In this document: positions 6,281 through 45,644 of the stretch, piece after piece
How the letters are laid out: each line of letters opens with the position of its first letter
Numbering within the stretch: the first letter of the stretch is position 1
NCBI RefSeq assembly: GCF_026571515.1
Contig: NW_026867305.1
Span: forward strand, 124,001 to 188,000
Source: Ruditapes philippinarum
Taxonomy: Eukaryota
DNA length: 64,000 nt
Direction of reading: 5' to 3'
The notes under the pieces: generated by a model
Databases searched by the model: none
Seen by the model: only the letters and a program-made list of their open reading frames with translations
Told to the model about the DNA's origin: nothing
Position numbers and translations under genes: made by a program

Positions 6281-9200
6281 ATGAAGACAACAAACAAGTC
6301 GGATATCAAAGATCAAGTTCGGCAAAGGCGTAGTACTTCGGACAAACCGAAAGTGTCTGAGGAGGAATTTCGTTCAGAAAAATATAGCAAAACGAAACCA
6401 AGGGCTTCAAATGGAGTGGAAACAAGTAAATCAACGGGTTCAATACCAAAATATATTAAGATTACCTGTTTAGTTTTTACGGTTATTGTTATTTTAGCAT
6501 TCACTGCAAACACGAAGGGCGTAACAGAGAATTTTGAGTACATAAGAAGCGTGCTTACAGGTAAAAATGTTTTTATTAATATCTTGCCAAGCATTATATA
6601 TGGTCTTGTCCATCTTTCAATTAAATTATGACCATTTATCATTTGTAAGAAAAATTTCAGAAGTAGTGAACAGACTGTGCAGATTATGATCCTTGTCTGC
6701 ACTGGTCGCATTGTTAGGACCTATTACCAACGGCATGTCTGCACTGGTCGAATTGTTAAGATCTATTACCAAGGGCTGGTCTGCACTGGTCGCAAAGTTA
6801 GGATCTGTTACCAAGGGCTGGTCTGCACTGGTCGCATAGTTACAATCTGTTACCAATGGCGTGTCTGCACTGGTCGTATAGTAAAGATCTATTACCAAGG
6901 GCTTGTCTGCACTGGTCGCATAGTTAGAATCTTTTACCAAGGGCTTGACAGTACGGGTCTTATAGTTAGGATCTATTACAAAGGGCTTGTCTGCAAGGGT
7001 GGCATAGTTTGAATCTGTTACCAAGGGCTTGTCTGCACTGGTTGCATAGTTAGAATCTGTTACCAAGGGCTTGTCTGCACTGGTCGCATAGTTAGGATCT
7101 GTTACCAAGGGCTTGTCTGCACTGGTCGTATAGTTAGAATCTGTTACCAAGGGCTTGTCTGCACTGGTCGCATAGTTAGGATCTGTTACCAAGGGCTTGT
7201 CTGCACTGGTCGCATTGTTAGGATCTGTAACCAAGGACTGGTCTGCACTGGTCGCATAGTAAGGATCTGTTACCAAGGGCTTGTCTGCACGGGTTGCATA
7301 GTTAGGATCTGTTACCAAGGGCTGGTCTGCACGGGTCGTATAGTTAGGATCTGTTACCATGTGCTTGTCCACACTTGAAGACCGAGGGCTTGTCTGCACT
7401 GGTCGCATTGTTAGGATCTATTACCGAGGCCTTGTCTGCACTGGTCGCATAGTAAGGATCTGTTACAAAGGACTTGTCTGCACTGGTCGCATTGCTAGGA
7501 TCTGTTACCAAGGGCTGGTCTGCACTGGTCGTTTAGTTAGGATCTATTACCACTATTTCCAAAGACTTGTATGCACTGGTCGCATTGTTAGGATCTGTTA
7601 CCAATGGCTGGTCTGCACTGGTCGTATAGTAAGGATCTATTACCACTATTACCAAAGACTTGTCTGCACTTGTCGCATTGTTAGGATCTATTACCAAGGG
7701 CTTGTTTGCACTGATTGCATAGTTATGATCTGTTACCAAGGACTTGTCTGCACTGGTCGCATAGTAAGGATCTGTTACCAAGGACTTGTCTGCACTGGTC
7801 GCGTTGTTAGGATCTGTTACCACGGACTTGTCTGCACTGGTTGCATTGTTAGGATCTGTTACCAAGGACTTGTCTGCACTGGTTGCATTGTTTGGATCTG
7901 TTACCAAGGGCTGGTCTGCACTGGTCGTATAGTTAGGATCTATTACCACTATTACCAAAGACTTGTCTGCACTTGTCGCATTGTTTGGATCTATTACCAA
8001 GGACTTGTTTGCACTGGTCGCATTGTTAGGATCTGTTACCAAAGACTTGTCTGCACTTGTCGCATTGTAAGGATCTATTACCAAGAACTTGTCTGCACTG
8101 GTCGCATTGTTAGGATCTGTTACCAAGGACTTGTCTGCACTGGTCGCATTGTTTGGATCTGTTACCAAGGGCTGGTCTGCACTGGTCGTATAGTTAGGAT
8201 CTATTACCACTATTACCAAAGACTTGTCTGCACTTGTCGCATTGTTTGGATCTATTACCAAGGACTTGTTTGCACTGGTCGCATTGTTAGGATCTGTTAC
8301 CAAAGACTTGTCTGCACTTGTCGCATTGTTAGGATCTATTACCAAGGACTTGTCTGCACTGGTCGCATTGTTAGGATCTGTTACCAAGGGCTTGTCTGCA
8401 CTTGTCGCATTGTTAGGATCTGTTACCAAGGGCTGGTCTGCACTGGTCGCATTGTTAGGATCTATTACCAAGGGCTTGTCTGCACTGGTCGCATTGTTAG
8501 GATCTGTTACCAAGGGCTGGTCTGCACTTGTCGCATTGTTAGGATCTATTACCAAGGACTTGTCTGCACTGGTCGCATTGTTAGGATCTATTACCAAGGG
8601 CTTGTCTGCACTGGTCGCATTGTTAGGATCTGTTACCACGGACTTGTCTGCACTGGTCGCGTTGTTAGGATCTGTTACCAAGGGCTTGTTTGCACTGGTC
8701 GCATTGTTAGGATCTGTTACCAAGGGCTGGTCTGCACTGGTCGCATTGTAAGGATCTGTTACCAAGGACTTGTCTGCACTGGTCGCATTGTTAGGATCTG
8801 TTACCAAGGGTTGGTCTGCACTGGTCGTATAGTTAGGATCTATTACCACTATTACCAAAGACTTGTCTGCACTTGTCGCATTGTTAAGATCTATTACCAA
8901 GGACTTGTCTGCACTTGTCGCATTGTTAGGATCTATTACCAAGGACTTGTCTGCACTGGTCGCATTGTTAGGATCTATTACCAAGGACTTGTCTGCACTT
9001 GTCGCATTGTTAGGATCTATTACCAAGGACTTGTCTGCACTGGTCGCATTGTTAGGATCTGTAACCAAGGACTTGTCTGCACTTGTCGCGTTGTTAGGAT
9101 CGGTTACCACGGACTTGTCTGCACTGGACGCATTGTTAGGATCTATTACCAAGGGCTTGTTTGCACTGGGCGCATAGATAGGATCTATTACCAAGGGCTT

Positions 9201-10654
9201 GTCTGCACTGGTCGCATAGTTAGGATCTGTTACCAAGAGCTTGTCTGCACTGGTCGCATAGTTAGAATCTGTTACCAAGGGCTGGTCTGCACTGGTCGCA
9301 TAGTTAGGATCTGTTACCAAGGGCTGGTCTGCACTGGTCGCATAGTTAGGATCTGTTACCAAGAGCTTGTCTGCACTGGTCGCATAGTTAGGATCTGTTA
9401 CCAAGAGCTTGTCTGCACTGGTCGCATAGTTAGGATCTGTAACCAAGGACTTGTCTGCACTTGTCGCGTTGTTAGGATCTGTTACCACGGACTTGTCTGC
9501 ACTGGTCGCATAGTTAGGATCTGTTACCAAGAGCTTGACTGCACTGGTCGCATAGTTAGGATCTGTTACCAAGAGCTTGTCTGCACTGGTCGTATAGTTT
9601 GGATCTGTTACCAAGAGCTTGTCTGCGCTGGTCGTATAGTTAAGATCTGTTACCAAGGGCTTGAGCAGCTTTGAATTTCCAACAATCCATTGTTAATATG
9701 AGGGTTTAAAATCAAAATATTGAAAAACAAACAGTTTAGAGTCTGGTCAGACTATAAAGACGTGTTATCTGGTCGGACTCGTCAAAAAGCTATCACTGAG
9801 AAGTCTAGTTTCTAAAGGTCTTTCATTCAGTTACCATCTATAGATATTTTGGAAATGATTGTGGAAAATGTGTGTTGATTTTTCGACAACATTAAGGTGA
9901 TTTTTAAAATCTTAATAAATCCTATTTTTAATGAAATGAGCTAGTAAACTTTAATGCATTTGTGTCAATAGAAAACAATAGTAAAATTGAAACAATAATT
10001 AAATTTATAGCTTACGAAATGTGGGTTTTTTCAGGCAAAGACGACTGTTTAAGTTATCCATGCATTAACGGTGGAGAGTGTGTCGATAAGATAGGAGGCT
10101 ATGAGTGTTCATGTAAGGAATGGTACACCGGGAAAAACTGCGAGACTTGTAAGTTTGTTACACCTATATCAGTGATCCTAGACTAAGAGTTTATCAACAT
10201 CTCTGTTTCTTTTATTATTCGAAATATTCTTGCTATTGCGAAAAATGTTAATCGGACAATTTTAGAAAGTTAAAATTCAACAACAAAAAATAATGTACAT
10301 TTTGTATCTAGATTTTTAATAAATTCCTGATTGAATCAATTTTTAAGTCTCATTTTCCCCCCTTAAATATGTCTCTATGAGCCTCTTCTAATGCAATGAC
10401 GTTACAATTGGGGATATATATGGATGTGTCTTTCTTTGTTTCTTTCTTCGTTTCTTTCTTTCTTCTTTTCTCTCTCCAGTGATATACTGTAATGATATGC
10501 TTTATCGTATTTCTATTTTTATATAGGTATTCCGTGTGTAAATCATCAGTGTAAAAACGGAGCATATTGCGTTCCACAACGTGACGGAAGTTACCGCTGT
10601 TCATGTCCACCTCACATTGCTGGAAGATTCTGTGAAATTAACGAAAGATACTGA
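6281..10654 (+). CDS. Gene A: type II membrane protein with two EGF-like domains (~173 aa, 3 exons)
   Basis: Exons 6281-6560 (charged tail + [18 protein letters not shown]), 10035-10148 ([38 protein letters not shown]) and 10527-10654 ([42 protein letters not shown]). All junctions are GT-AG, phase 1, total 522 nt. The EGF exon sizes (114, 128) equal those of paralog B1. Confidence 0.85.
6690..9663. repeat. 42-bp minisatellite (~70 units) in intron 1 of gene A
   Basis: Unit ~CCAAGGGCTTGTCTGCACTGGTCGCATAGTTAGGATCTGTTA. It explains the 14-aa periodic ORFs on both strands. A recurrent 9-bp insertion marks higher-order units. Confidence 0.97.
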
Positions 10655-10865
10655 TAATAAAGTTCCCTCATATAACTGAACCGATGAAGTATGTGGTGTT
10701 TCTCAATAGACAATGGAAATAAAAATCCTTCATATTTTATATGCGGTAAATTTTGTGAAATTATACATAGACGCTGAGAGTGTTAATCATTTGAGCGTTG
10801 ACAATGACAGTGCACGCCCTTCACTTTATGTAAGTACAAGTCCTTCGCTTTATCTAAGTACACGT

Positions 10866-11592
10866 CCTCCACTTTATTTAGCAAATGAATTTGTGAAAAT
10901 AGCTATAGACAATGAGAGTAATTCACCTTATTTAACTAGTGCATTTGTGAAATTTTCCATTAACAATGAAAGTTCTTCACTTTATTTAGCTAGTGAACTT
11001 GTGAAAGTATCTATTGACAATGAAAGTACTTCATTTTATTTATCTAGTGAACTTGTGAAAGTATCTATTGACAATAAAAGTATTTCACTTTATTTAGCTA
11101 GTGAACTTGTGAAATTATCCATTGACAATAAAAGTACTTCACTTTATTTAGCTAGTGAATTTGTGAAATTATCCATTGACAATGAAAGTACTTCACTTTA
11201 TTTAGCTAGTGAACTTGTGAAAGTATCTATTGACAATGAAAGTACTTCACTTTATTTAGCTAGTGAACTTGTGAAGTTATCTATTGACAATGAAAGTACT
11301 TCACTTTATTTAGCTAGTGAACTTGTGAAATTATCTATTGACAATGAAAGTACTTCACTTTATTTAGCTAGTGAACTTGTGAAAGTATCCATTGACAATG
11401 AAAGTACTTCACTTTATTAAGCTAGTTAACTTGTGATAGTATCTATTTGCAATGAAAGTACTTCACTTTATTTAGCTAGTGTATTTATGAAATTATCAAT
11501 TGACAATGAAAGTACTTCACTTTATTAAGCTAGTGAATTTATGAAATTATCCATTGACAATGAAAGTACTTCACTTTACTTAGCTAGTGTAT
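10866..11592. repeat. 54-bp minisatellite (~13 units) 3' of gene A
   Basis: Unit TTATTTAGCTAGTGAACTTGTGAAATTATCCATTGACAATGAAAGTACTTCACT. It explains the 18-aa periodic ORF at 10713-11420. Confidence 0.95.
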
Positions 11593-12154: not shown

Positions 12155-12696
12155 ATTATTATTTTTAAGGCAAATTATGCCTCAGAAACATATGATTTTT
12201 TACATCTTCTTCTTCAGGAAGGAGAAACATAAATTTATAAACGTTTAGATATGGGTTTAATAATGGTTTTTATTGACAGGTAGTAACAAGACAAAAAAAC
12301 ATTCACTTTAACCAAAGTATCCCATGTAAGTAAGGTCATATGTAATGTGAAATGGCATTGAGCGGAAGGACTAATTTTTTATTCGAAATTACGTTGATTG
12401 TGTGACATTTAAAGTGTTTCTTTGATGCACCTGTTGCATTTATAACTCTCTCATCTTGAGAAAATATAACAAATGAAAGTTTGAAAACATATGCTTTACT
12501 TATATAGAAATAAAGGCAGATTAAAAACTAAATAGAATTTGTTTAAACTTTGAATGAGCTTAGATCAAAAGCAATTGTGGAAATATGACAACAGTTACTG
12601 TATACAACACCACACTTTTACACTGCTGGAACCGAAAGGTAAATTACCAGGAAAGCCAGGCTACACATCCGTGCAAACTGAATCTGCGCTGTACGT

Positions 12697-12950
12697 TTGG
12701 CTACTGTACTTTTGGCTACAGTACTTATGGCTACTGTACTTATGGCTACAGTACTTATGGCTACTGTACTTATGGCTACAGTACTTATGGCTACTGTACT
12801 TTTGGCTACTGTACTTATGGCTACTGTACTTATGGCTACTGTACTTATGGCTACAGTACTTATGGCTACTGTACTTTTGGCTACTGTATTTATGGCTACT
12901 GTACTTATGGCAACTGTACTTTTGGCTACTGTACTTATGGCAACTGTACT
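12697..12950. repeat. 15-bp minisatellite (GGCTACTGTACTTAT)~17
   Basis: Direct inspection. It is stop-free in all three + frames. Confidence 0.95.
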
Positions 12951-13271
12951 AACTAACTTTAGAAATTGCTATCTTGATATTCGCAGATTTATAGACAGTT
13001 CTAATAACATTGAAGCATGAAAAGTGCATTTTACAAATTGAGCAGATTAGGCTTGCAAAATATGTACAGTCATACAAGTGCCAAAATTGTCGGCTGCTAA
13101 ATTTAATCCTTTTAAGTAGGGTAAGTCGAATGCGTACTTCAGCAAACATGCCCCCCATGTTAATATTTGCAAACGAAGTGTGAAATGTGTATCTCCCATG
13201 TTTAATGCATATAAAACTTTTTGAAACGTTTATGTTTTGCAAAATTAAGATAATTCTGTTATATAAATAGA

Positions 13272-19557: not shown

Positions 19558-20458
19558 ATTACTTATATAATGTATGATCATTTTGTAACTATTCGTATGT
19601 ATCTGAATTTTATTAGGTTGGACTGAGATTAATGTTCGGTAAATTTTTGAGGTGTAAATTAATACCCGGTCAATATCCACGGGATGAATTTATTTAAAGA
19701 AATGTTTGAAAATAGAAATTTTAGCCGGACACGCGTAGAACGGGTCAAATAACGAATTAATCAAATGATTAAAACTTCAGGAAATATAAAGCCAAATATA
19801 TTGCGACAATTTTCTTGCATACAGTTTGTTTATATGTATTCCAATCACGCGAGATTTCTTGTGCCATTACAAATCATTTGCATCATTTTTAAAATTTCTT
19901 GATTGATTGATCATTACTGTTGCAATATATAAAAATACAACAACCATAGGTTTTATCGCAAACAAATTGGCGATTAAGTCAACACACACCCTCAAATGTG
20001 TATTCACAAGACTCACTGTACATTCTTTTGCCAAAACAATATCCTACTTTTTCAAGTCAGAAGATATCAGTAGTTAAGAAGATATGCCAATAAAAATACT
20101 CATTATAGTAAATATGAAACGATCCATTTTGATTAGACAAATTAATTACTTTTGAGGAATTGGTGCGAAAAGGATGTAACTCATATATGTGACATAAAGA
20201 GAGTTACCTCCGGTCCGCACTAACCGTACTAGCTGTTATAGTTATAAAGACAATTTGTGTGCTATTTAAATTTGCGCTGTATACAAAAACTTATTAATAT
20301 TGGAAAACCAAGTTAAAAATAACCCATTGCGAAATTTGTTGTCGCAACAATGGTAAACCCAGACAGAGCTCTTTAAAAGCTCCCGCAACTTAAGAATTTC
20401 ATCAGTTAAGTTAGTAACTCAACAAATACACATATAACCATAAAACAAAATTGCAATC

Positions 20459-23400
20459 ATGAAACAAGAGAGGGACACGACGCGTTTAGGATACGTTGGA
20501 AATATTCACCATCGGGGGAACACCGACGACGACGAAGAATTTAAAAGAACGTACGCGTCGGAGCTGACTTTGTCAGAGAAATATGGCAAGACGATACAGC
20601 AAACTTCAACAACTGAGAAAACAGTCAAAGTAACCGCTTCAAAGGTACAAGAAGGAGAAAAAACCTACTCATTTACCACTTCATTATGGGTAATTGGATT
20701 TGTCGCCACTTTAGCCGTCTTTACTGGCTCAAAAATTGGAAGAGAAAATATAAAGAGAGTGATAACAGGTATTTACTTTATCATCATATGAAATTTTCAA
20801 ATTTTAAGATTTTTGAAAATACTTTATTTGAGATAATATACATGCTGAATAGGTCTTTTGTAGCGAGTTTAATTTTACTCATCTTCAATAACAGTTTATA
20901 CCTGATAAATCGATAAATGCCAGCCATTTTCCTTCTCGCTACGCTAGGTTGCACACGAACAGTGTTTGTTGACATATCTTTTATACCATTAAAGCAGCGT
21001 GCATGTAGATTCATTGTTTTTTATAGCAAAATATTGAGAAAGTATTTAAAATGGTAAAAATTTAGTAAAGATTAATTAAGGGTTGACTTTTATTATCCTA
21101 GCTCTCTTAAAAATTACAGAACTTAAAATAATACAAAATAAAATGAATAAATAAAAAGCGAAACTAGCCCTTACTCTATTCAGTAAAGGGTAGGTGAAAT
21201 GATAAGTTAATTGTTCGCATATTGCTTAAAACGTTCAAATTTAAAACTTAAAAACTTCAAATTATTTAAAGGAACGTTATTTCTTGTACATATCCTAAAC
21301 TTTTTATAAACTTCTTTTAAAAATTGGTATATCTCCGAAACTGGAGGCTTTAATGATTAATATGACAATACCGTAGCTCAATAAAACTCATTCTAAACAA
21401 AAGTTTATCATAGTTATTTAACGTTTAATCGATCAATTGTATACATTAAATACAAAGGTAGAGTGCTTTTGTTTATAACTATCAAAACAGTGTAGCTATG
21501 TCTGTAATTCGATCGATTTGAATATTGATTGATTAGATTTATACAAATCAATTCTATTTATAGAACACATTGATCGCTCCTAACCATGTATGAAATGTTT
21601 ACATCCCATAGCTTACTGTTGTACCGTCTTGACTCTTTATCATATCTACATGTATGTTGTTCAATTTCATTTAGGATGAAATCATTTTTAAATGATTAAT
21701 TGAGAAATGGTCAAATTTTCATGAATATCGCAGAGAGAAAAAAGCAGCAATTGTCCATTCTCAATGTTTCATTTCAATCGGATCACTTGAGTTTTTCGCA
21801 TTTACATACGGAAATTTCCGAAATTTTACGAGTAGGACTAAAGTTTTTGCATTCAATTTCTATGACAGATTGCCGGGAACCAGGATCTATACCTTATGGT
21901 TCTATCGTTGTAAATGAGGAAGAAGGAACAAAATATGGAGCAAAAGCAACTGTCGTCTGCTCACACGGATACTCGAGTTCAAATCCGGAAGCTGTATGCC
22001 AAGCGAACGGAAAATGGTCGTCTGTATATTGTCACGTGACTGGTAGGTATAGTCTTTCAATATTTCCAAAATTGTTAATTTATATTACTGCATTTTGATA
22101 TTTAGATATTTTAAGACAGATAACATTGTCATTATCAAATATAAGACTTTTTTTGCCTTGTCAGCTACTCTTTGCTGTGTTACAAAGAAACGAATCTGCA
22201 CATGTATTATATATTTCATAATTATACATAATAATCAATTATACATTTTTAAGATTGTGGAAACACTTTACCACAAATCGAAAACGGACAATCAACAATG
22301 AATAGTGAGCAAGATTCTACGTTTGGTGCAACAGCCACCGTTACTTGTGCCCCCGGATATCAGCGAAATAAACCTAAGATTTCATGTCAGGCTGACGGGA
22401 TGTGGGAACAAGCGACATGCCAGCCAGTTGGTAAGTCTTCCATTGAACTTGAGTCTTATTTTTAATTCGATAAAGCCTGCTTACACCGGTGTGGAATGGA
22501 GACGACATGGGGTGAATGGCAGTTCGAAATTGCTCATGTCAACCATAACCATGTTTTATGAACTGGCACTTGCAAATATTTTCAGTTTAACCATGCCAGG
22601 ACAAAGTTTCTATTTTGACATATTTCAGGCAAACTTTTGCATTAGACTTTTCTTAGATTATAGAAATAATAAAATTCATGTATGAAAACAAACAACTTAT
22701 TGTAGGCAGTGTCAATCATAAAACAATTACCCATAATAAGAACTGATATAGAAATATATAGATATAATTTTATGTATATTTAACCATATTTCAGACATAT
22801 TCATTATCTAAAGGATCGTTGCACCGAAATTGTGTCCGTAACGTTCATTGAAACTATTCAAGTTTTAAACATAATGTTTTCCTTTTAGTTAGATTCGATT
22901 ATGTCATGACGTCATTGCGCTTATTCACATAATTATAAATTATAATACTTTTTCAATCTTTCTTCCCAATACGAGTTGATGTTGATGTTGTATTTCAGAC
23001 TGCAGTAATCCAAAGATTGAACATGGTCATCTTGAGTGGGACAGCACATTGTTTTTGTCACAGGCTACTGTGAAATGTGACACTGGTTACGCACCGAGTC
23101 AACCACATGTCACATGTACAGCTTCCGGTACATGGCAGAATGCTGTATGCTACAGTAAGTCTTAATTTGATATGTCCATTAACACCGTGTATATCCAATA
23201 ACGCTGGAATGTGAAAATAACGATTTGTGCAAAAAGTAACGCAGAATTGTGCAATAATAATAATTTACAGAAACTTACTTTAAGGATCTTACACCGGCTG
23301 CCAGTACAGACCGGAACATCTAGCTCGAGGGTAACTGAGTTTTCGCTGAAACCTGAGAGCTAGATATTCCGGTCTGTACCGGCAGCCGGTGTTTGATTTT

Positions 23401-27982: not shown

Positions 27983-29149
27983 TAAGACTAAAGTTACAGC
28001 CCCCCTGTCTCAGTCAAGATGTCGCGGTCCATAAATCAAGATAGCGGGGCTCATACATTCTGAAGGTGTACCACTTGCATCGTTGGTTAGCTTAAAATAG
28101 CTTAAATGAAAAATAAGAATGGGACAGAAAGTGAAACAGAGTAGTTGGCGATCAGATCTACATGTCAAATATATGACGATTTGAAATTAAGTGAATGGAA
28201 TCATTTAAACTCTGCCAAGCATTTCTCGATGGATTTACTCATCCCATGGGATTTTCTGCCATGTAAATCCCATGGGATTATTTTCTATTATGAAACAGTA
28301 AATTTACCTGCATGTTTTTTGGTAAACTTTTAATATTTTTTTATTGTGTTGATCCTAATTTTGGATATTTAATGCTAATAATGTTTATTAGATTCATTTT
28401 AAGCAATTTGAAAAGTGTCCGATTGGTACAGTCTTCCAATTTTGGAAATTGTAGAGACAAGATTTTCCATCCTCCTTAAAAAGTTGCTAGCTCCTAACTT
28501 TGAAATGGATTACCATTTCAAATAGGTTATAACAAAGAATTCTTTGGTTTAATCTTCCGCTGCTTTATGTCTAAACCAATAAAAGAAAAACGGTTATTTT
28601 TTGCGAAAAATAAAAATTGATGATAATGCTATAAACATGATAAAAATGAAGTATGTAGAGGATGAATTTTATATTATCCTTGTATGTTCATATGCAACTT
28701 ATGAAAAAATATTGTCTGACTTCGAGGAAACGACTTTGGATCCTTTGGGAAGGAATTAATAACTTGTTGGAACGAGATAAAAAAAGAGAAGTTCAGTTAA
28801 AAATGAAAAGAAATCGTCAGCTATGTCGAGGAAATGACTTTATAACTAATAGGAGAACTAGTTTATTCTTTGACTAAGGCACAATATTGCATAAATATAC
28901 TTTGCATGAGGAGAGAAATAATCAAGTCAAAAAGAAAAAAAAAAAACATGTACTGCTCTGGTCTATATGTGTTAGTTATTTACTAAATCAGTTTGCAATT
29001 TTTGTATGAAAGTGATAAAATAATTTAAAATTTGTCTTTCAAAATTGAAACCAAATGAAATCAAGTAGCATTATTTATGTATAATAATGCCATAAGCCCG
29101 CCACACGTCATGCTATTGAATTCACTTGATTGAACGACACAAGTCACAC

Positions 29150-29151
29150 TT

Positions 29152-29184
<33 letters not shown>

Positions 29185-32100
29185 TTTTTAAAATCTCATT
29201 CTCAAGTAAAGAACAAAGACATGAAGCCCCGTTTATCATTGTGTGGCGGCCGTCACCTTTGGTCGGAATAGTCAGCTTGATAAAGTCCTTTTGTAAATAT
29301 GCTTCAACCAGACGCTCCGTATATTCCTGTAAAATAGATAAATAAGCATGAATTTATGACGTATTTATTTTATTTGCAATATTTAATTTTATTTGCAATA
29401 TTTAAGAAATAAGCGCAACAGATATATAGAAGAATATAGCTTTCAAATAAATCTAAGTATTTGTAAATGATGTCAGCTGATGGTTTTTGGTATCTTGTCT
29501 ATGAACAAAAAAAAAACTATTGGGAACTGAATACATCTTAACCCGGTGCTAGGGTGTGCTTTAACACTATCTGTCACTCAAAAAAGTGAGTCTACGATTT
29601 TTTTTTCAACTGTTTACTTTTTGTCCTTATTGCTCTCCCTCGAATGATGGCTATTTTCAAGAGTTTCTTTTACGCAAGATCTAGAATGATTTAAATAAAA
29701 TTAGCATAATGAATAATCATACTAGTCATGCTATTTTTGAAACTACAAGAAAATACAAATAACAAGGAACACATAAAACTTACAACGTCCGTCTCTCCTG
29801 GACACATGTATTTCGTCAGAGATTTTAGAAGCTGACATCGTCGCACAAAAACGTCCTGGAAAATGTAAACATGGACACAATTAAGCAGTAGGTTTTCCTA
29901 TGTATAATTTGAAAGTCGCTTTAATGACATTAAAGCAATACCATATTTATAATATTTGAAGCACACGATGGACAACTTGCATTTAAATTGGTTGACGAAT
30001 AGAAAAAAAAAATGAAAAGAAATATGTATACTCAACCTGGCATGGCTTTCGGTCAAAACGGACAATGTTCAAATGCTGCAAGTGGTAGACTGTTAAGATA
30101 ATAATAATGAGGTTAATGTTTCATTGTATTGAGGGAGCAATGCAAACTAAATCAAGACGATTGGCTATCTTTGCATAAAAACTTTGCAAGCAGAGGACAT
30201 ATCATGATTGTTGTGAGGACTAATTGAGGGCTAATGTTGCTTTGTTTTAATGCATCAATATCTGCAGAATCACGAGTACGCATTTTAAAGCCCGATCCCA
30301 CAGGGCAATAGATGTTTAGAGTCAGAGGGTTTTTACTGATGTAAATGCTCATAAAGATGCATAAGCACTATTCTTGCATAAATCATACGTCCGAATTGGG
30401 TTTTCTCGTTTCGTCATTTGTATTTGTATAAATTTTTGCTTGACTCAGGGCGCAAATTTAAAACAGCTTAATAGAATGATCGCCCGGTAGTTTCATTTTC
30501 AAAGCATAACGTAATCAAATGACGTCGTACAAGCAGGTGCTAAGCATCGAACAAGCAATGGGTTCTTTGAATGCAGCCATCGCAGATGGGAGAATTATCA
30601 AAAGGGTTAAAGTGTCTACTTCTCAAAGAATAAAAGGCCCGAGTCCTTCAATTGACTCCGGTGCGTTTCATGTTAGCTTTAACAGTTCAATTTTTGTCAA
30701 AACAAATATTATTTCACCAAATTAAACACACAAATTCATGGAATAGAGTCTGGATAAGTGTATACTAGTACTTGTTACAAAGTGACAGTCTGGGACAATA
30801 TTTATTTTTATTTCCTTTTTTTTCTAATAACTGACTTTGATATTCCAGTGTCAAAATCATCAAATTATGACTCTAATAAAAGGATACATCGTCTTGAAAG
30901 AGTACAAAATATTTGTCGTCTCTCATTGTCTCTCTATTAATTCTGTTCCAAAGTTTCTCGTTCAGCTCTTCTTTTGCCTGTAACATAAATTATCGTTTTC
31001 ATAAATGTCATAAACAGTAGACCTTTCATCAACGTCGATATTTGTCAACATATATATAATCAAAGCACAGAATTTGTTTGGGTCTCGGAATATCAGAAAG
31101 GTAATGATTGTGAGATTATAAACTAATTTGTTTTTGTGTAGTGCCAGCAATGCTGTTTCCATTGTTATAACTGTAGTAAATTGGCTATAAGGCTAATTGC
31201 AACACTTATTTTCAATTCAATGTTTATTTGGCTAAAATAATTAAAAAAAACAACAAAAACAACAAGATGATTTCCTTTAACTAGGATTTGAACCGCAGAC
31301 CTCTTGCTTCCTAAACGAGCGTGTAACCCTGGACCACGGGCAAGTTATAAGAAAACAAACCACAGTATTCTAAATTACTGTTTGTAATCCTTATTAATTT
31401 TGAATGAAATTGATTATCGATTGTCGACTGCCTGAAGTCGTCCCTGTCCTAGAGTCAATATCCTTACTTTATTTTGTCCGAAAGTCTAAATAACAAATGT
31501 TTATTTAGGCGTTCAAATAATCCGAAGCTTTACGGTAATAGCCGGGCAATTTTCATTGATTTAAAAGATATTCATCCGCTTAACAATATTATTTGAATAT
31601 ATTTCCGGTTATTTGCGGAAATGTTAAAGAATCATACAATATTAGAAATTTTCAACTTATCGGGAACTATATTTTCTTCCCTGAGAAGGTTTGAAAATTA
31701 ATGCACCTGTCATTTGACAATCTTTACGCAGTGATCTCCCCTTAATTTGTCGGCGTTAGTGTACTTATAAAGGGAAAATACCGCTTCGAGGAGTTCATGA
31801 CGGACTACTTACGGATTTTGCAAATAAGCATATCAGGGTCTGAAATTTCGCTACCATTATTTGTTTTGTCTGACGACCCAAACAAATAAAAATCAAATAT
31901 GCTGAAAACACAAATTGAGACATTTATTTTTCATTTTATTTCATATATTTATATGTTCAAGATATGTCCAAAGTTGAAACTTCAATCTTAAGGTTGCTTT
32001 CTTTTTCATTTACAGCTCTTATTTTATAACAAACTAAAATGTGTGTTAAGCATCAACAAAATTACTGAAAATGTTATGCTTTAAACTGCAGTCCGTAATA

Positions 32101-34523
32101 CCATTTTATGTTTGATAAATACACAGTAATTTCATGTTGATCATCTACAAACATATTTACCTTTTCTTCATATGAATGTGTAAATCCTTTCCATTTCTCG
32201 AAACGGAACAATTTGCCACAACCATCAATTGCAATTAAACAAAGCCAAAAGATTATATTTACAAAAATGCCTCTTGCTATAAAACCGTTGGTATTTAACC
32301 ATCCAGAATTATCCATTTCTCTACCAAAACTGAAGGAAACGTAGGTAAATTCCAAACCAACAGTTATTAGACTCAGAATAAAGAATACAAGTGTTGTATA
32401 TCTGGTAAGATGTATTAGTATGTGTTTGTATTTAACAGGGAACGAGTTGCTGACAATGGCTTCCATTTCATCAAACCTCGCATCTGAGACCTACAAAAAG
32501 GTTTATCAAATTACACTTTTTCACAAATATCTTTTTGACGAAATATACAACACGTCTAAGTTTTTTAGTGTAAAATGATGTTGTGTTAACAAACATTGAC
32601 AATAGTACAAATATTTTGTCATTTCATTTATAAATATCTGAAAAAGTGATCCCTCGGAAGCATTTAAAACAGCATAATGACATGGAAATTGCAGATTCGT
32701 TTTGATTGAGTCTCTACATGAGGAATTTAAATTTATTCATAATTCATTGAAATCAGTTTCTTTCAACTACTAGTTTATTAATCTGGATATTTAGAATCCT
32801 AGTATGAAATGTCTAAGACCATTCGTCCATCTTAAATTTAAGAGATTCACAAGAAGCAAATAAGATCTGGAAAAAAGATGTTCTTTGCTTAAGTAACAAT
32901 GAAATTGAATTAAATGAGTTGCCAAAAGGTTTGCCATTTGTTGCTATATGACACAAAAACAATAAGAGCAAACGATCACGACCCGTAAATGATTTATCAA
33001 AATCAACTTACAACAAAGCCATTTCTCCTGAGAGACATTCTTTCTTTTTTGTCAATCAGTAATTTGAATCTTGATACTGTAGTCCATTTGCACCCTTCTT
33101 TATATTGTGTCATTGACATGCGTCGAGTTAAGCCATTTGTATCTATTATATAATGTAATAACGAGTATTCTCACGTTGATTTAAACCATTACAGATTTAA
33201 AGTATAAATAGTAAAATTAAAAACGCTACTGCCGAGCTTGATTTTATAATTTTATTTTATACTTATATTTCTGAAAAACAAAAGCCATTTGTATCTATAA
33301 TATAATGTAAAATAAAGAGTATTCTTCACTTTAATTTAAACCATGTCAGATTTAAAGTAGTAATACAGAATTAAAAACGTTACTAGCTTGAATTATTATT
33401 ATATATTCTGATAACAATGGTAATATTTATGAAAAACAATTAAATATATCATACACTAAGAAAACTACTTACTGTTGTGTTCCACGTGCCAAACTGTTTA
33501 AGATAAAAAAAAGTTTCAGCACCAAGTTATTGTAATATTTCTTAAGTTGAATCTTATTATAGCATACTTCATACTTTAATGTCTGTGTGAACAGGCTTAT
33601 TTCCTTCTAAACATTTTCTATACCCTATTTCGTATACTGGAATTTATATGGTTTATATGACACATTCTGGTGAAAGAATTTTAAATACTCAGAGGCATGT
33701 TAATGTATACATACATATTATTAACATCTATGAAGTAGATTCATAACAATGTGTAGTTTTTAACATGGTATTGCAAAACGAATACAAAAGCTAGTGCAAC
33801 AGAGTTTGTAATAACATAATTATAGAGTTTGTAATAGAATCTTAAAGCAATTATTGTGTTTTGCTATGCTTTAACACATAACAATATATATTAAGTGTAT
33901 GACTATACATGCTTTCTACACTATCGGACTAAATATAAAATAATATAAATATAGTAATGTTCTTGTACTTTCTTTCATTATAAAACATTAGAATCTTGTG
34001 GAAAAAATGAAATCTTACCGTCTTGTAAAAATGCATTTAGGATTAGTTTATGAACTTCTATCGTTTCTATGTTTTGAGCATCAATGTATGTTGTTGTTTT
34101 CAGATTATCAGGAATATCGCATGGCTCGATCTTGATAGGTATGATTGTGTAGTCATCTGTTATTCTTGTATGAACCGCTTGGTGAATTTCATGCTGACAG
34201 AAGCTACTGTTAACTGATTCTTCCGAAAGAATAATGATGATGCCCATGCTCCGTTTTATAGCAGAATTGATGTTATGGAAAACATTTTGACCAGGTTGAA
34301 AGTCACGCTCATGATAACAGCATTTTAATCCCTCGCCTTCCAAATTTTCAACAATTACTCGAACATCGGCTGAATTGTAGTCAGTATAGCAAACAAACAG
34401 ATGATAGTCTTTTGTATTAGGTAAGTCTGGAATGTTATGGTTTCTTGAAAATGTATCCGAATCACTTTCCGTCAGTAAACACATTGATTCCATATCACCG
34501 GGTTCACTCATTCTCGAAAACAT
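29150..34523 (-). CDS. TIR-domain, two-TM protein with TMEM268-like C-terminal part (~447 aa, 7 exons)
   Basis: Exons 34523-34019 (TIR: YHLFVCY, CYHERDFQPG, IIILSEESVNSSFCQHE, IIPIKIEPCDIP), 33142-33012, 32490-32161 (two TMs), 30977-30888, 30075-30037, 29855-29784 and 29326-29150 (RHTMINGASCLCSLLE..D10*). All junctions are GT-AG with phases 1,0,0,0,0,0, 1344 nt open. Confidence 0.85.
30076..30887 (-). other. U12-type (minor spliceosome) GT-AG intron
   Basis: Donor GAT|GTATCCTTTT. Branch-like TCTTAAC ends 16 nt before the 3' splice junction. No polypyrimidine tract. Confidence 0.75.
31280..31340 (-). mobile_element. Degenerate tRNA-derived SINE head
   Basis: Minus strand reads CCCGTGGTCCAGGGTTACACGCTCG...GGTTCAAATCCTAG (box A/box B-like), without a clean cloverleaf. 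Confidence 0.45.
31700..31893 (-). mobile_element. Interspersed repeat with terminal hairpin (Helentron/HINE-like), inverted copy at 46598-46800
   Basis: TTATTTGTTTTGTCTGACGACCCAAACAAATAA hairpin and adjacent sequence match the reverse complement of the 46.6-kb insertion. Confidence 0.55.
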
Positions 34524-34815
34524 TCTAAAGTTTTTGTTTTTTTTATTTTCGACAAAATGTCTTTATATTGACGTCGACTCAGGTTTGAATAAAAGTCGTA
34601 GTTTGTTAAATATATTTCCAATTTTATCGATTACAAAGGAATTGTAATCAATATTAAAAAAATCGTACGCGTTCCTTTGTTGATTATGTATTTGAATTAC
34701 ACGGTTGAATAAAATGACAGATCCCTAAAGAATAAACCGATATCTTGTACAATTGTATTGTGCTTTACACATATTTTGGATTACGTTTTACTGATCATAA
34801 ATAGATACAAGAAAT
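34524..34815. promoter_or_regulatory. Putative bidirectional promoter/5'UTRs between divergent genes
   Basis: 292 bp separate the ATG at 34523 (-) from the ATG at 34816 (+). CRE-like TGACGTC at ~34569. Confidence 0.55.
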
Positions 34816-37480
34816 ATGGAGACGTATAAAATCAAACGTTTTACCGGTTTAATACAGTATGTTGCAGCAATCACCTTTCTTTTGTGCGGGGTAAGCCGGT
34901 CAAATTTTATTATTGTGTTACTTTTTAATTTGAAATGAAAAGCGGTATCATTTCGTGTTTTGTTTTAAATTACTGAATACATACTAACTAAAGTGTTATC
35001 GTTATATTTGCAGATTGAATGTCAATTTCCCTGTACATCACCCGGTATTTGTCCAAGACATAAACCATACTGCACAACAAGTGGGTGTGTTTTCGAATGT
35101 CCAAACTCAGCGTATATTAATGGAACGGAATGTGTTGCTGAGTGCGGAAATAATCTTGTTTTTAATAAAACATGTGTGGATCATTGCCCTACAAATATGA
35201 TGTTAAGAGAGACATCAAAGCTTCTTGGAAGAGAAATCTACATTACCAAACTATGCGTGACTATGTGTGATCACCATGAATATATTTATAATGGCACATG
35301 CGTTAAAGCATGTCCGGTGACGCATAAATACATTCACGGGAATAATTGTACAACGTCCTGTCCACAAATGACGACATTTATAAAGAATATAACAGTTTAT
35401 GGCATTTCCTTTTATAAATGTGTTAAGGAGTGTGAATATCTAATTGAGGATGGTTACTGCACCGATGACTGTGTTCCAAACAAATATGTCTTTAATTCGA
35501 GTTGCATAAGCCAGTGTCCAACTTCACATCCATTTATATATAATCAGCATTGTGAGCAAACGTGTCCTTATTCGACAGTTACGTCTGGAAATAACACTTG
35601 CTTGTTTAGATGTCCCTTAGATGTTCCTTATATTTTCAATAACAGTTGTGTTGATATTTGTCCAGACGATAGCGCATATATTGTGACAGAAGATGGAAGA
35701 TTGCATTGCATCCAAGAATGTCCACTAATGACGTATCATTACAATTCAACATGTGTTGAAAAGTGCCCAAATGGAACGTTTATTGAAGACAGAACATGTA
35801 ATAACAAATGCCCAAACGATCGTCCGTACATATGCACCTTTTCAAAACAAAAATTACTTGTATTTGACAGTAAATTTTTTAAATATTTTCCCAACCGATA
35901 GTTGGGTTTCCCAAATCCCCAAAAAATACGTATTCTCTCGGTATGACTTGCTTGTCCACTTGCCCTTCTGGTTATAAATATTTAAATGCGACATGTGTTC
36001 AAGGATGTCCTCATGACTTTCCATTCTCTTACGATTACACTGCAAAGGCAAAGTATGGTTTGAATAATATCTTTACAAGGATCAAAATAGAGCCAACATG
36101 TACAAGAAGTTGTCCTGATAACCTTTATCAAGTGAACCATACTTGCCAGCCATTTTGTCCTGATGGGCTTTACACTGTTGACAAAACATGTGAGGCGGCT
36201 TGTCCAAAATTGAAAGAGTTTAAACGTCACAGGAGTATTTCATTTGAGAAATATGACGTTGTAAGCGATACTTGGAATTATTCTTGGAAAAGAGAAACTA
36301 AACAAGCAGAAATTGTTGAATGTGTGACTGCATGCAGTCACAATGAGTCGATTTTTAACTCCACATGCATTGAAACATGCCCAATATATACAATGTCCGT
36401 AAATAAATCATGTCTTTCAGAATGCCCAGAATACTTCCTATTTATCATTCAGCGTACAAAAGGCGTGAAATGTTCAGCTTCTCAAAAGTGTGAAGGTGTG
36501 TATCGATACTCGGAGTGCCTACGTGAATGTCCACCAGGTTCTTATCAATTTAACTCCACATGTGTAGATGCTTGTCCAGATTCTACATTTACAGTTGGCA
36601 ATTCGTGTGCGGCTAGTTGTCCTGAATATCAACGATTTCTTCTCAAAAGTGAAAGAACAGTTACTCAGTGGAGACAAGGATGGGACAAAAAATGGTCAAA
36701 AATAAGCCGAAGATTAAATGCAGGTTATTTGTGTTTAGAATTTTGTCCGTCTGATAAAAAGGTCCATAATTTGACTTGTATGGACCATTGTCCGAAGAAG
36801 TCATTTGTGAATGGTAATGAATGCGTATATGAGTGTCCACCAGAAAGTCCTTTGGAATACACAGATAATGAAACATGGGCATGTATTCGTTCTTGTGATG
36901 ATGAGTATAAAACTTTCTATTATAATGGATCGTGTCATTATTCGTGCACAGCTCCTCTCATTGAATATGATGGTTTTTGTCTTGAGAAATGTCCACCTGG
37001 ATTTTTATGGTTTAATGAGTGCACCAGGAGAATTGATGTTGTAATCATATCTGCACTCATTCTTGGAATCAGCATCATCATACTGGCTTTTGGGAGAAAT
37101 GTTGTTAAAGAATATGGTATTGTTCTATGCGAGAGTATGAGTTATTATCTAACGGTAAGTCGTATTAGAAGTATATACTACACTTTCATTTTCCTTTTGA
37201 TCACAAAATTCAGACATACATAAAATGGCTATATTGTTTCAATTGAACTATTATTAACAATTATCATAGTATTTTATATTAATTTCATATATAATTTCAG
37301 TGTAAAACCAAAGATAAGTACACAATAAAGGACCGTTATGGTAAAAGTAGAAATGACTGTCAAATGCCGGAAACAATTGAGATACAGAGATGTGATGGTA
37401 TTGAAATGGACCAAATAACAAACTCGAACTCAAACCTTATTGACTTTGAACAGCCGTTACATGAAGAAACAAATGTTTAG
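34816..37480 (+). CDS. Type I membrane protein of furin-like (PCSK5-like/growth-factor-receptor) Cys-rich repeats, ~800 aa, with an apparent frameshift at ~35850-35930
   Basis: Exon 34816-34890 is a signal peptide (METYKIKRFTGLIQYVAAITFLLCG|GTAAG). Exon 35014-37154 has many CxxxCP..NxTC repeats, then TM VVIISALILGISIIILAF. Exon 37301-37480 is a cytoplasmic tail ending HEETNV*. Junctions are phase 0. No protease domain. Confidence 0.8.
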
Positions 37481-44838: not shown

Positions 44839-45644
44839 ATAATTCACATAATTATCAATTAGAATACTTTGTAAATTTTTCTTTTAAACCTAAACCAACA
44901 TTATCACACAAATATAAAGGCCTTATTTTTCATTGTCTGCTACTTTTCGCTGTGTTACAAAGAACCGAATCTGTACACAAATTATATATTTCATATACAT
45001 ATATATTTTAAAGATTGTGGAAACACTTTACCACCAATTGAAAAGGGACAATCAACAATGAATAGTGAGCAAGATTCTACGTTTGGTGCAACAGCCACCG
45101 TTACTTGTGCTCCAGGATATCAGCGAAATAAACCTAAGATTTCATGTCAGGCTAACGGGATGTGGGAACAGGCGACATGCCAGCCAGTTGGTAAGTCTTC
45201 AAGTGAACTTGAGTCTTACTTTTAATTCGCTAAAGCCTGTTTACACCGGTGGGGAATGGAGACGACATGGGGTGAATGGCAGTTCGAAATTGCTCATGTC
45301 AACCAAAACAATGTTTAATGGAGTGGCATTTGCAAATATTTTCAGTTTTACCATGCCAGGACAAAGTTTCTATTTCAAAAACCTTTGGCGTTAGACTTGT
45401 TTTAATTATAGAAATAATAAACTGCATGTATGAAAACAAATTATTTTAAGTGATTGTTTTGTGGCAGTGTCAATCATAAATAAACAATTACCCATATAGA
45501 AATATATAGAATCTAGATATAATTTTTTAATATTTTGACCAGACATTTTCATTTTTCTAAAGAACAATTCAACGAAACTGTGTCCCAAACTTTCATTGAA
45601 GCTATTCAAGTTGTAATAAATAATGTTTTGCTTTACAATTAGAT

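Follow-up and report, generated by a model that had tools for sequence, protein, structure and literature searches.

A gene for a TLR-type TIR protein with a predicted membrane hairpin, recurrently paired with the gene of a predicted furin-like surface protein in the clam Ruditapes philippinarum

The window analysed here, a stretch of 64,000 nucleotides of clam DNA, encodes a spliced 454-aa protein in which a TLR-type TIR domain is joined to a hydrophobic hairpin and to a set of Cys/His residues, and the gene of this protein is paired, family-wide, with that of a predicted cysteine-rich surface protein. We favour, tentatively, the reading that the two genes form a paired receptor, the partner being the sensing half and the TIR gene the signalling half, with the TIR acting as a scaffold. 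The partner gene, which the sequence-only reading of this DNA did not mention, is a stronger clue to the mechanism than the glutamate flagged there.

Gene structure and transcript support

All the motifs quoted in the sequence-only reading are present on the minus strand, between 34523 and 29150. Seven exons had been counted, whereas the coding exons are eight (Table 1), the one missed being the 21-nt microexon. A model lacking it has 447 aa, equal to the earlier count, and is stop-free. The full eight-exon model has 454 aa, GT-AG introns throughout and no internal stop, and it is identical, letter for letter, to RefSeq P0001 (XP_060578603, 'uncharacterized protein LOC132735643', Ruditapes philippinarum).

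Four runs were mapped on positions 28500-35000 of the window, the Logan contigs X1 and X2 coming from two studies; none of the runs listed for the stretch is recorded as RNA, and the RNA status of X1 and X2 is a guess, though their joints skip GT-AG introns. All seven joints that lead from the TIR exon through the transmembrane exons to the stop were found in contigs of X1 and/or X2 (34019/33493, 33473/33142, 33011/32489, 32161/30977, 30888/30075, 30037/29855 and 29784/29326), the first of them in both, and the microexon is included in contigs from the two studies. The exon joints were absent from the portions examined of the raw-read runs X21 and X23 (4% and 6% of reads), where an exon depth of ~0-1x indicates low expression. 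In one X2 contig (depth 15, a single run), the joint 30977/33011 leaves out the 330 nt of exon 4 and keeps the reading frame, which suggests a soluble 344-aa form devoid of the transmembrane hairpin.

Most raw reads are taken by high-copy transcribed repeats of introns 4 and 3 (31100-31950 and 32620-32840). The terminal poly-Asp is encoded by an ATC trinucleotide repeat (29153-29182), missing in aligned relatives. Elsewhere in the window, two similar exons of sushi/CCP-like appearance, recognised by eye, lie on the plus strand at 21700-22095 and 44875-45222, with duplicated flanks at 20444/42133 and 22302/45062, and long tandem-repeat tracts (6600-11400 and 12550-13020) hold open frames on both strands.

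Table 1. Features of the TIR gene and its neighbour, in window coordinates
Feature	Position	Strand	Evidence
Exon 1: TIR domain (aa 1-168), with M1 or else M5 (34511) as the initiator	34019..34523	-	model, Pfam, contig joint
Exon 1 residues: TLR-type box 2 CCYHERDFQPG; F108; E112	F108 34202-34200; E112 34190-34188	-	
Exon 2: 21-nt microexon, aa 169-175	33473..33493	-	contigs, RefSeq protein
Exon 3: aa 176-219, opening the GOLGA7/TMEM268-like domain; NG motif, two predicted strands and helix	33012..33142	-	
Exon 4: helix and transmembrane hairpin; C303/C310	32161..32490	-	
TM1 and TM2, within exon 4	~32400-32332; ~32283-32224	-	
Exon 5: LNEKLWNRIN helix and strand, aa 330-359	30888..30977	-	
Exon 6: LNIVRFDRKPCQ, with C371 (30042-30040)	30037..30075	-	
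Exon 7: aa 373-396	29784..29855	-	
Exon 8: H424, C432, C434, poly-Asp tail, stop	29150..29326	-	
Intergenic, 292 bp separating the two start codons	34524..34815	.	
Partner: predicted signal-peptide exon	34816..34890	+	splice signals only
Partner: furin-like cysteine-rich ectodomain and one transmembrane helix	35014..37154	+	
Partner: predicted last exon, short cytosolic tail, EETNV-stop	37301..37480	+	

The gene family and its paired neighbour

Word-indexed homologue searches recovered only the protein itself, and a full HMMER search returned 27 proteins, two of them (P0023 and P0028) being discarded as bacterial propeller repeats. Ten further loci of the clam genome carry the TIR, NG, TM and RH..CxC exons; at C13220 the tail is present and no TIR was found within the 4-30 kb examined. 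A distant subfamily comprises 12 TIR exons on C15051 (6), C1829 (3), C10585, C9658 and C9598, the tail exons being confirmed for some of these loci only. Allelic copies in a redundant assembly may account for some of the loci. Eight clam TLR-type TIRs, encoded by long single-exon genes of which seven have LRR matches, served as an internal control; in an unrooted tree with long branches, both subfamilies lie on one side of a well-supported branch and form a branch separate from these eight. In a divergent clade (TIR exons near 70.0, 85.0, 95.6 and 17.2 kb of C1829 and at ~102.2 kb of C10585), WCSYQ replaces WCxxE and box 2 is altered in the copies examined, which offers a natural Glu-less comparison.

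The partner gene is divergently oriented from the TIR gene, and the interval between their start codons is likely to act as a shared bidirectional promoter. It encodes ~710 aa of furin-like cysteine-rich repeats, with exon borders placed from splice signals only, and its tail has no Pfam domain. The reading frame of the window's copy shifts near 35850-35900, which could reflect a frameshift, an assembly error or a small intron; the paralogue C15208a is open for 735 aa. The first exon of the partner has no contig cover in X1/X2, and this and the shifted frame weigh against the pairing. The EETNV end (37466-37480), which resembles a class I PDZ-binding motif, also terminates the C14087 partners (three distant copies altogether).

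At 19 further TIR loci, as much as 9.9 kb of upstream sequence was inspected for pairing, and the genome was searched with two partner types. In this genome, at least 25 of the 26 TIR loci adjoin a partner gene, 23 of them head-to-head, and at least 25 of the 26 partner loci adjoin a TIR of this family, both counts being lower bounds, since the search was limited to its scored candidates (41 and 21). The close loci are paired in 11/11 cases (nine head-to-head, C14087a/b on the same strand) and the distant ones in 11/12, and three extra broken TIR copies stand beside otherwise unpaired partners. Pairwise identities of the TIRs and of the partner ectodomains are correlated (rho 0.745, 11 pairs, 0/5000 permutations), as expected from block duplication; the informative point is that pairing persists at ~35% identity and past the change of orientation at C14087. 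A partner-TIR fusion in the same-strand C14087 pairs was considered and rejected, since the partner ends in a separate stop exon and copy a has an ATG to itself. Copy b (region of G000:C14087:343742) has ATT at the place of this ATG and an apparently frameshifted NG exon, and is likely a decaying duplicate.

Pairing at 25 of 26 loci argues that the two proteins may well be a split sensor plus signaller, and a surface protein deprived of a signalling domain beside a TIR deprived of an ectodomain also suggests a split receptor. The TIR protein could, alternatively, work alone at the membrane, sorting, stabilising or dampening Toll-like receptors as an adaptor or decoy, with a neighbour that was co-duplicated and shares the promoter but makes no contact. 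The TLR-type of the TIR, the many TLR-type genes of the clam and the soluble form suggested by exon skipping fit such a role, as does the influence of GOLGA7, CHIC2 (kin of the GOLGA7/GCP16-Erf4 family) and TMEM268 on how other membrane proteins are trafficked or turned over. However, it leaves unexplained why 25 of 26 partner loci adjoin this TIR family and none was found elsewhere beyond these, and why the C14087 pair remains adjacent despite its changed orientation; we regard it as rather unlikely.

The TIR domain and the flagged glutamate

Pfam TIR_2 matches aa 43-151 (E 4.8e-19; 69.5 bits versus a curated cut-off of 28). The domain carries the extended box 2 E-x-C-x-H-x-R-D-F-x-x-G (E62...CCYHERDFQPG), which places it with the TLR-type (group 3) TIRs according to the motif definition of PMC7075850. 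The top matches of a single-sequence search of the PDB were TLR15, TLR1 and TLR6, oyster TIR-STING being sixth-best. With the family profile, the order was TLR15, TLR1, TLR6, Hydra TRR-2, TIR-STING, TLR2, TLR10, MyD88 and TIRAP, with AbTIR after them (5.7e-8), and SARM1 was absent among the best 60 of 73 matches. The protein is nevertheless neither a Toll-like receptor, having no LRR, an N-terminal TIR and two transmembrane segments, nor a TIR-STING, since it has no STING domain and the clam STING matches are on another contig.

The FCQHE motif (F108...E112) had been proposed to hold a catalytic-type glutamate. E112 is indeed present and lines up with the Glu of WCxYE in TLR1/6/15, but it is not discriminating: the control clam TIRs have the same Glu in 8/8 and the Trp in 7/8. 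According to PMC7075850, >70% of TIRs overall, and >90% of those from TLR1/2/6/10, have the alphaC Glu, its frequency being unlinked to activity. Judged by alignment, the flagged residue is shared with ordinary Toll-like receptors and is no demonstration of enzyme activity.

With the same anatomy, membrane clustering could trigger E112-dependent cleavage of NAD+ or production of an ADPR-type messenger, which would make the protein a membrane-tethered animal TIR NADase outside SARM1; we consider this unlikely. An E112 equivalent is found in 24/24 close-subfamily and 5/6 distant rows, and the WxxxE Trp position stays aromatic (F or Y in 24/24 close rows, W in 6/6 distant ones). Among 12 cyclising TIRs in bioRxiv 2022.05.07.491051, this position is W in 9, Y in 2 and F in 1; the same preprint lists oyster TIR-STING among NADase TIRs and describes AbTir as active in a TLR-like scaffold assembly. 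On the other hand, the alphaC Glu is necessary but insufficient for an enzymatic TIR, the WxxxE Trp is replaced by F108, C1829a has Gln at the E112 position, and the extended box 2 is of the TLR kind. Furthermore, the role of the TIR of oyster TIR-STING is described as unclear in PMC10732462, and PMC13455253 (2026) names SARM1 as the sole enzymatic animal TIR before Raw.

The predicted membrane domain

The spliced protein joins the TIR to two predicted transmembrane segments, the hydrophobic stretches at aa ~250-272 and ~289-308 (two in total), which bears out the membrane anchorage proposed earlier. The likeness of the region to TMEM268 and ERF4, also proposed earlier, persists as a lead from three indirect lines, but no significant PF14800 profile match accompanies it (0/1 for the clam protein, 0/24 and 0/15 for relatives). 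By language-model embedding, the clusters nearest to aa 175-445 are TMEM268/DUF4481 (cosine 0.80-0.82, at the level of a lead; 182-187 shared features), and comparison with TMEM268 gives a TM of 0.48 across 197 aa. A mollusc TIR cluster at 0.96 has PF14800 in 13% of its 84 members. The same architecture may exist in chordates, which dominate two equally close TIR clusters (416 and 386 aa; 0.96-0.97).

The best match of the predicted fold is GCP16 in the ZDHHC9 complex, the alpha/beta core spanning 118 of 124 GCP16 residues at 9% identity. A fold from an alignment of the TM exon only was poor (pLDDT 57), matched helical hairpins only and was set aside; Foldseek and a Foldseek-seeded second pass gave nothing clear. 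A tail-only profile found no GOLGA7 among PDB sequences, and PF10256 matched neither the clam protein nor its relatives. Since a PF14800 search of the clam's own genome gave nothing significant (best candidate E 3.5, no recognisable adjoining exons), there is no clam TMEM268 control. The prediction of a tail homodimer scored 0.00, which is uninformative either way. From these fold and embedding models, the predicted two-pass membrane domain may well belong with TMEM268 and GOLGA7. C371, H424, C432 and C434 are invariant or nearly so across relatives, a pattern consistent with a putative metal site.

The GCP16 match and the Cys clusters that follow TM2 in many relatives could evoke a GOLGA7/Erf4-type accessory subunit delivering TIR-containing substrates to a DHHC palmitoyltransferase, but this is very improbable: the RDYS motif required for DHHC binding (PMC12528901) is missing in 21/21 rows of the family, hhalign with clam GOLGA7 stays at shuffle level (22/60 shuffles equally high), and the clam already has an ordinary GOLGA7 orthologue with RDYS (G000:C4640:40085-41826).

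Proposed mechanism

In the paired sensor and signaller that we favour, both ends of the TIR-TM protein would be cytosolic. The fold of residues 176-367 would be GOLGA7/ERF4-like, its hairpin taking the place of the membrane-anchoring helices of GOLGA7, and a Cys-His-Cys-Cys zinc knot would follow. The membrane domain would grip the membrane segment or short tail of the partner, as TMEM268 does with ITGB4 and CD11b. Indeed, TMEM268 binds ITGB4 (PMC6748091) and CD11b (PMC11169502) and protects both from degradation, and CHIC2 governs cytokine-receptor turnover (bioRxiv 2023.07.17.549407); by analogy, it is plausible that such a domain grips a single-pass partner. Since the partner has a variable ectodomain and no signalling domain, ligand binding could cluster the partner and thereby the TIRs, which would then act not as an NADase but as a scaffold for TIR adaptors of the MyD88 type. 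The broader proposal that a furin-like variable sensor and a TIR effector, coupled through a membrane domain of TMEM268/GOLGA7 fold, make up an undescribed, expanded class of head-to-head immune receptors in clams, that TMEM268 itself belongs to the fold family of Erf4/GOLGA7 and that the TIR perhaps consumes NAD, is possible but somewhat doubtful.

Comparison with known systems

Like the clam protein, TMEM268/DUF4481 (PF14800) has two transmembrane helices within one domain, in human TMEM268 at 104-126 and 130-152 inside DUF4481 38-328 (PMC6748091); it differs from the clam protein in the N-terminal TIR and PF14800-negative tail of the latter, in the expansion of the clam family to ~26 loci and in the paired neighbour. 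With GOLGA7/GCP16-Erf4 (PF10256) the clam protein may share the predicted core, whereas the true transmembrane hairpin, a ~75-aa Cys/His extension, the missing RDYS and the low identity set it apart. The extended box 2, the alphaC Glu and the best PDB matches are those of TLR-type TIR proteins, and oyster TIR-STING likewise has a TIR shuffled onto another domain (PMC10732462), but the clam protein has no LRRs, death domain or STING domain and carries its TIR N-terminally. In Hydra HyLRR/HyTRR, ectodomain and TIR are also on separate membrane proteins (PMC6321704). The clam ectodomain is, however, furin-like instead of LRR, the TIR carrier is two-pass and TMEM268-like, and the genes are physically paired.

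Plant head-to-head sensor/helper NLR pairs such as RRS1/RPS4 are likewise divergent pairs, one member having a TIR, retained through duplication. The clam pair differs in being made of membrane proteins; no shared ancestry is implied and the cooperation is putative. Bivalve ecTIR-DC and orphan TIR proteins lacking a receptor ectodomain were reportedly proposed as adaptors by Gerdol et al. in 2017, and that work may already include the clam family as a TIR-plus-TM group. The passages of PMC9334734 and PMC5549309 that mention the orphan TIR and ecTIR-DC groups do not give their architecture. Among the papers listed by our literature search, none joins TMEM268 with a TIR domain, and DUF4481 is mentioned in a single one.

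Significance

The predicted fold would tie the poorly understood mammalian TMEM268, which phagocyte CD11b requires for its stability, to GOLGA7/Erf4 and highlights the conserved Cys-His-Cys-Cys site. Among the many orphan TIR proteins of bivalves, for which no input is known, one whole family gains a candidate input from the fixed head-to-head pairing with a predicted surface protein devoid of signalling domain. If true, this would be an animal parallel to the paired immune receptors of plants, in a farmed species.
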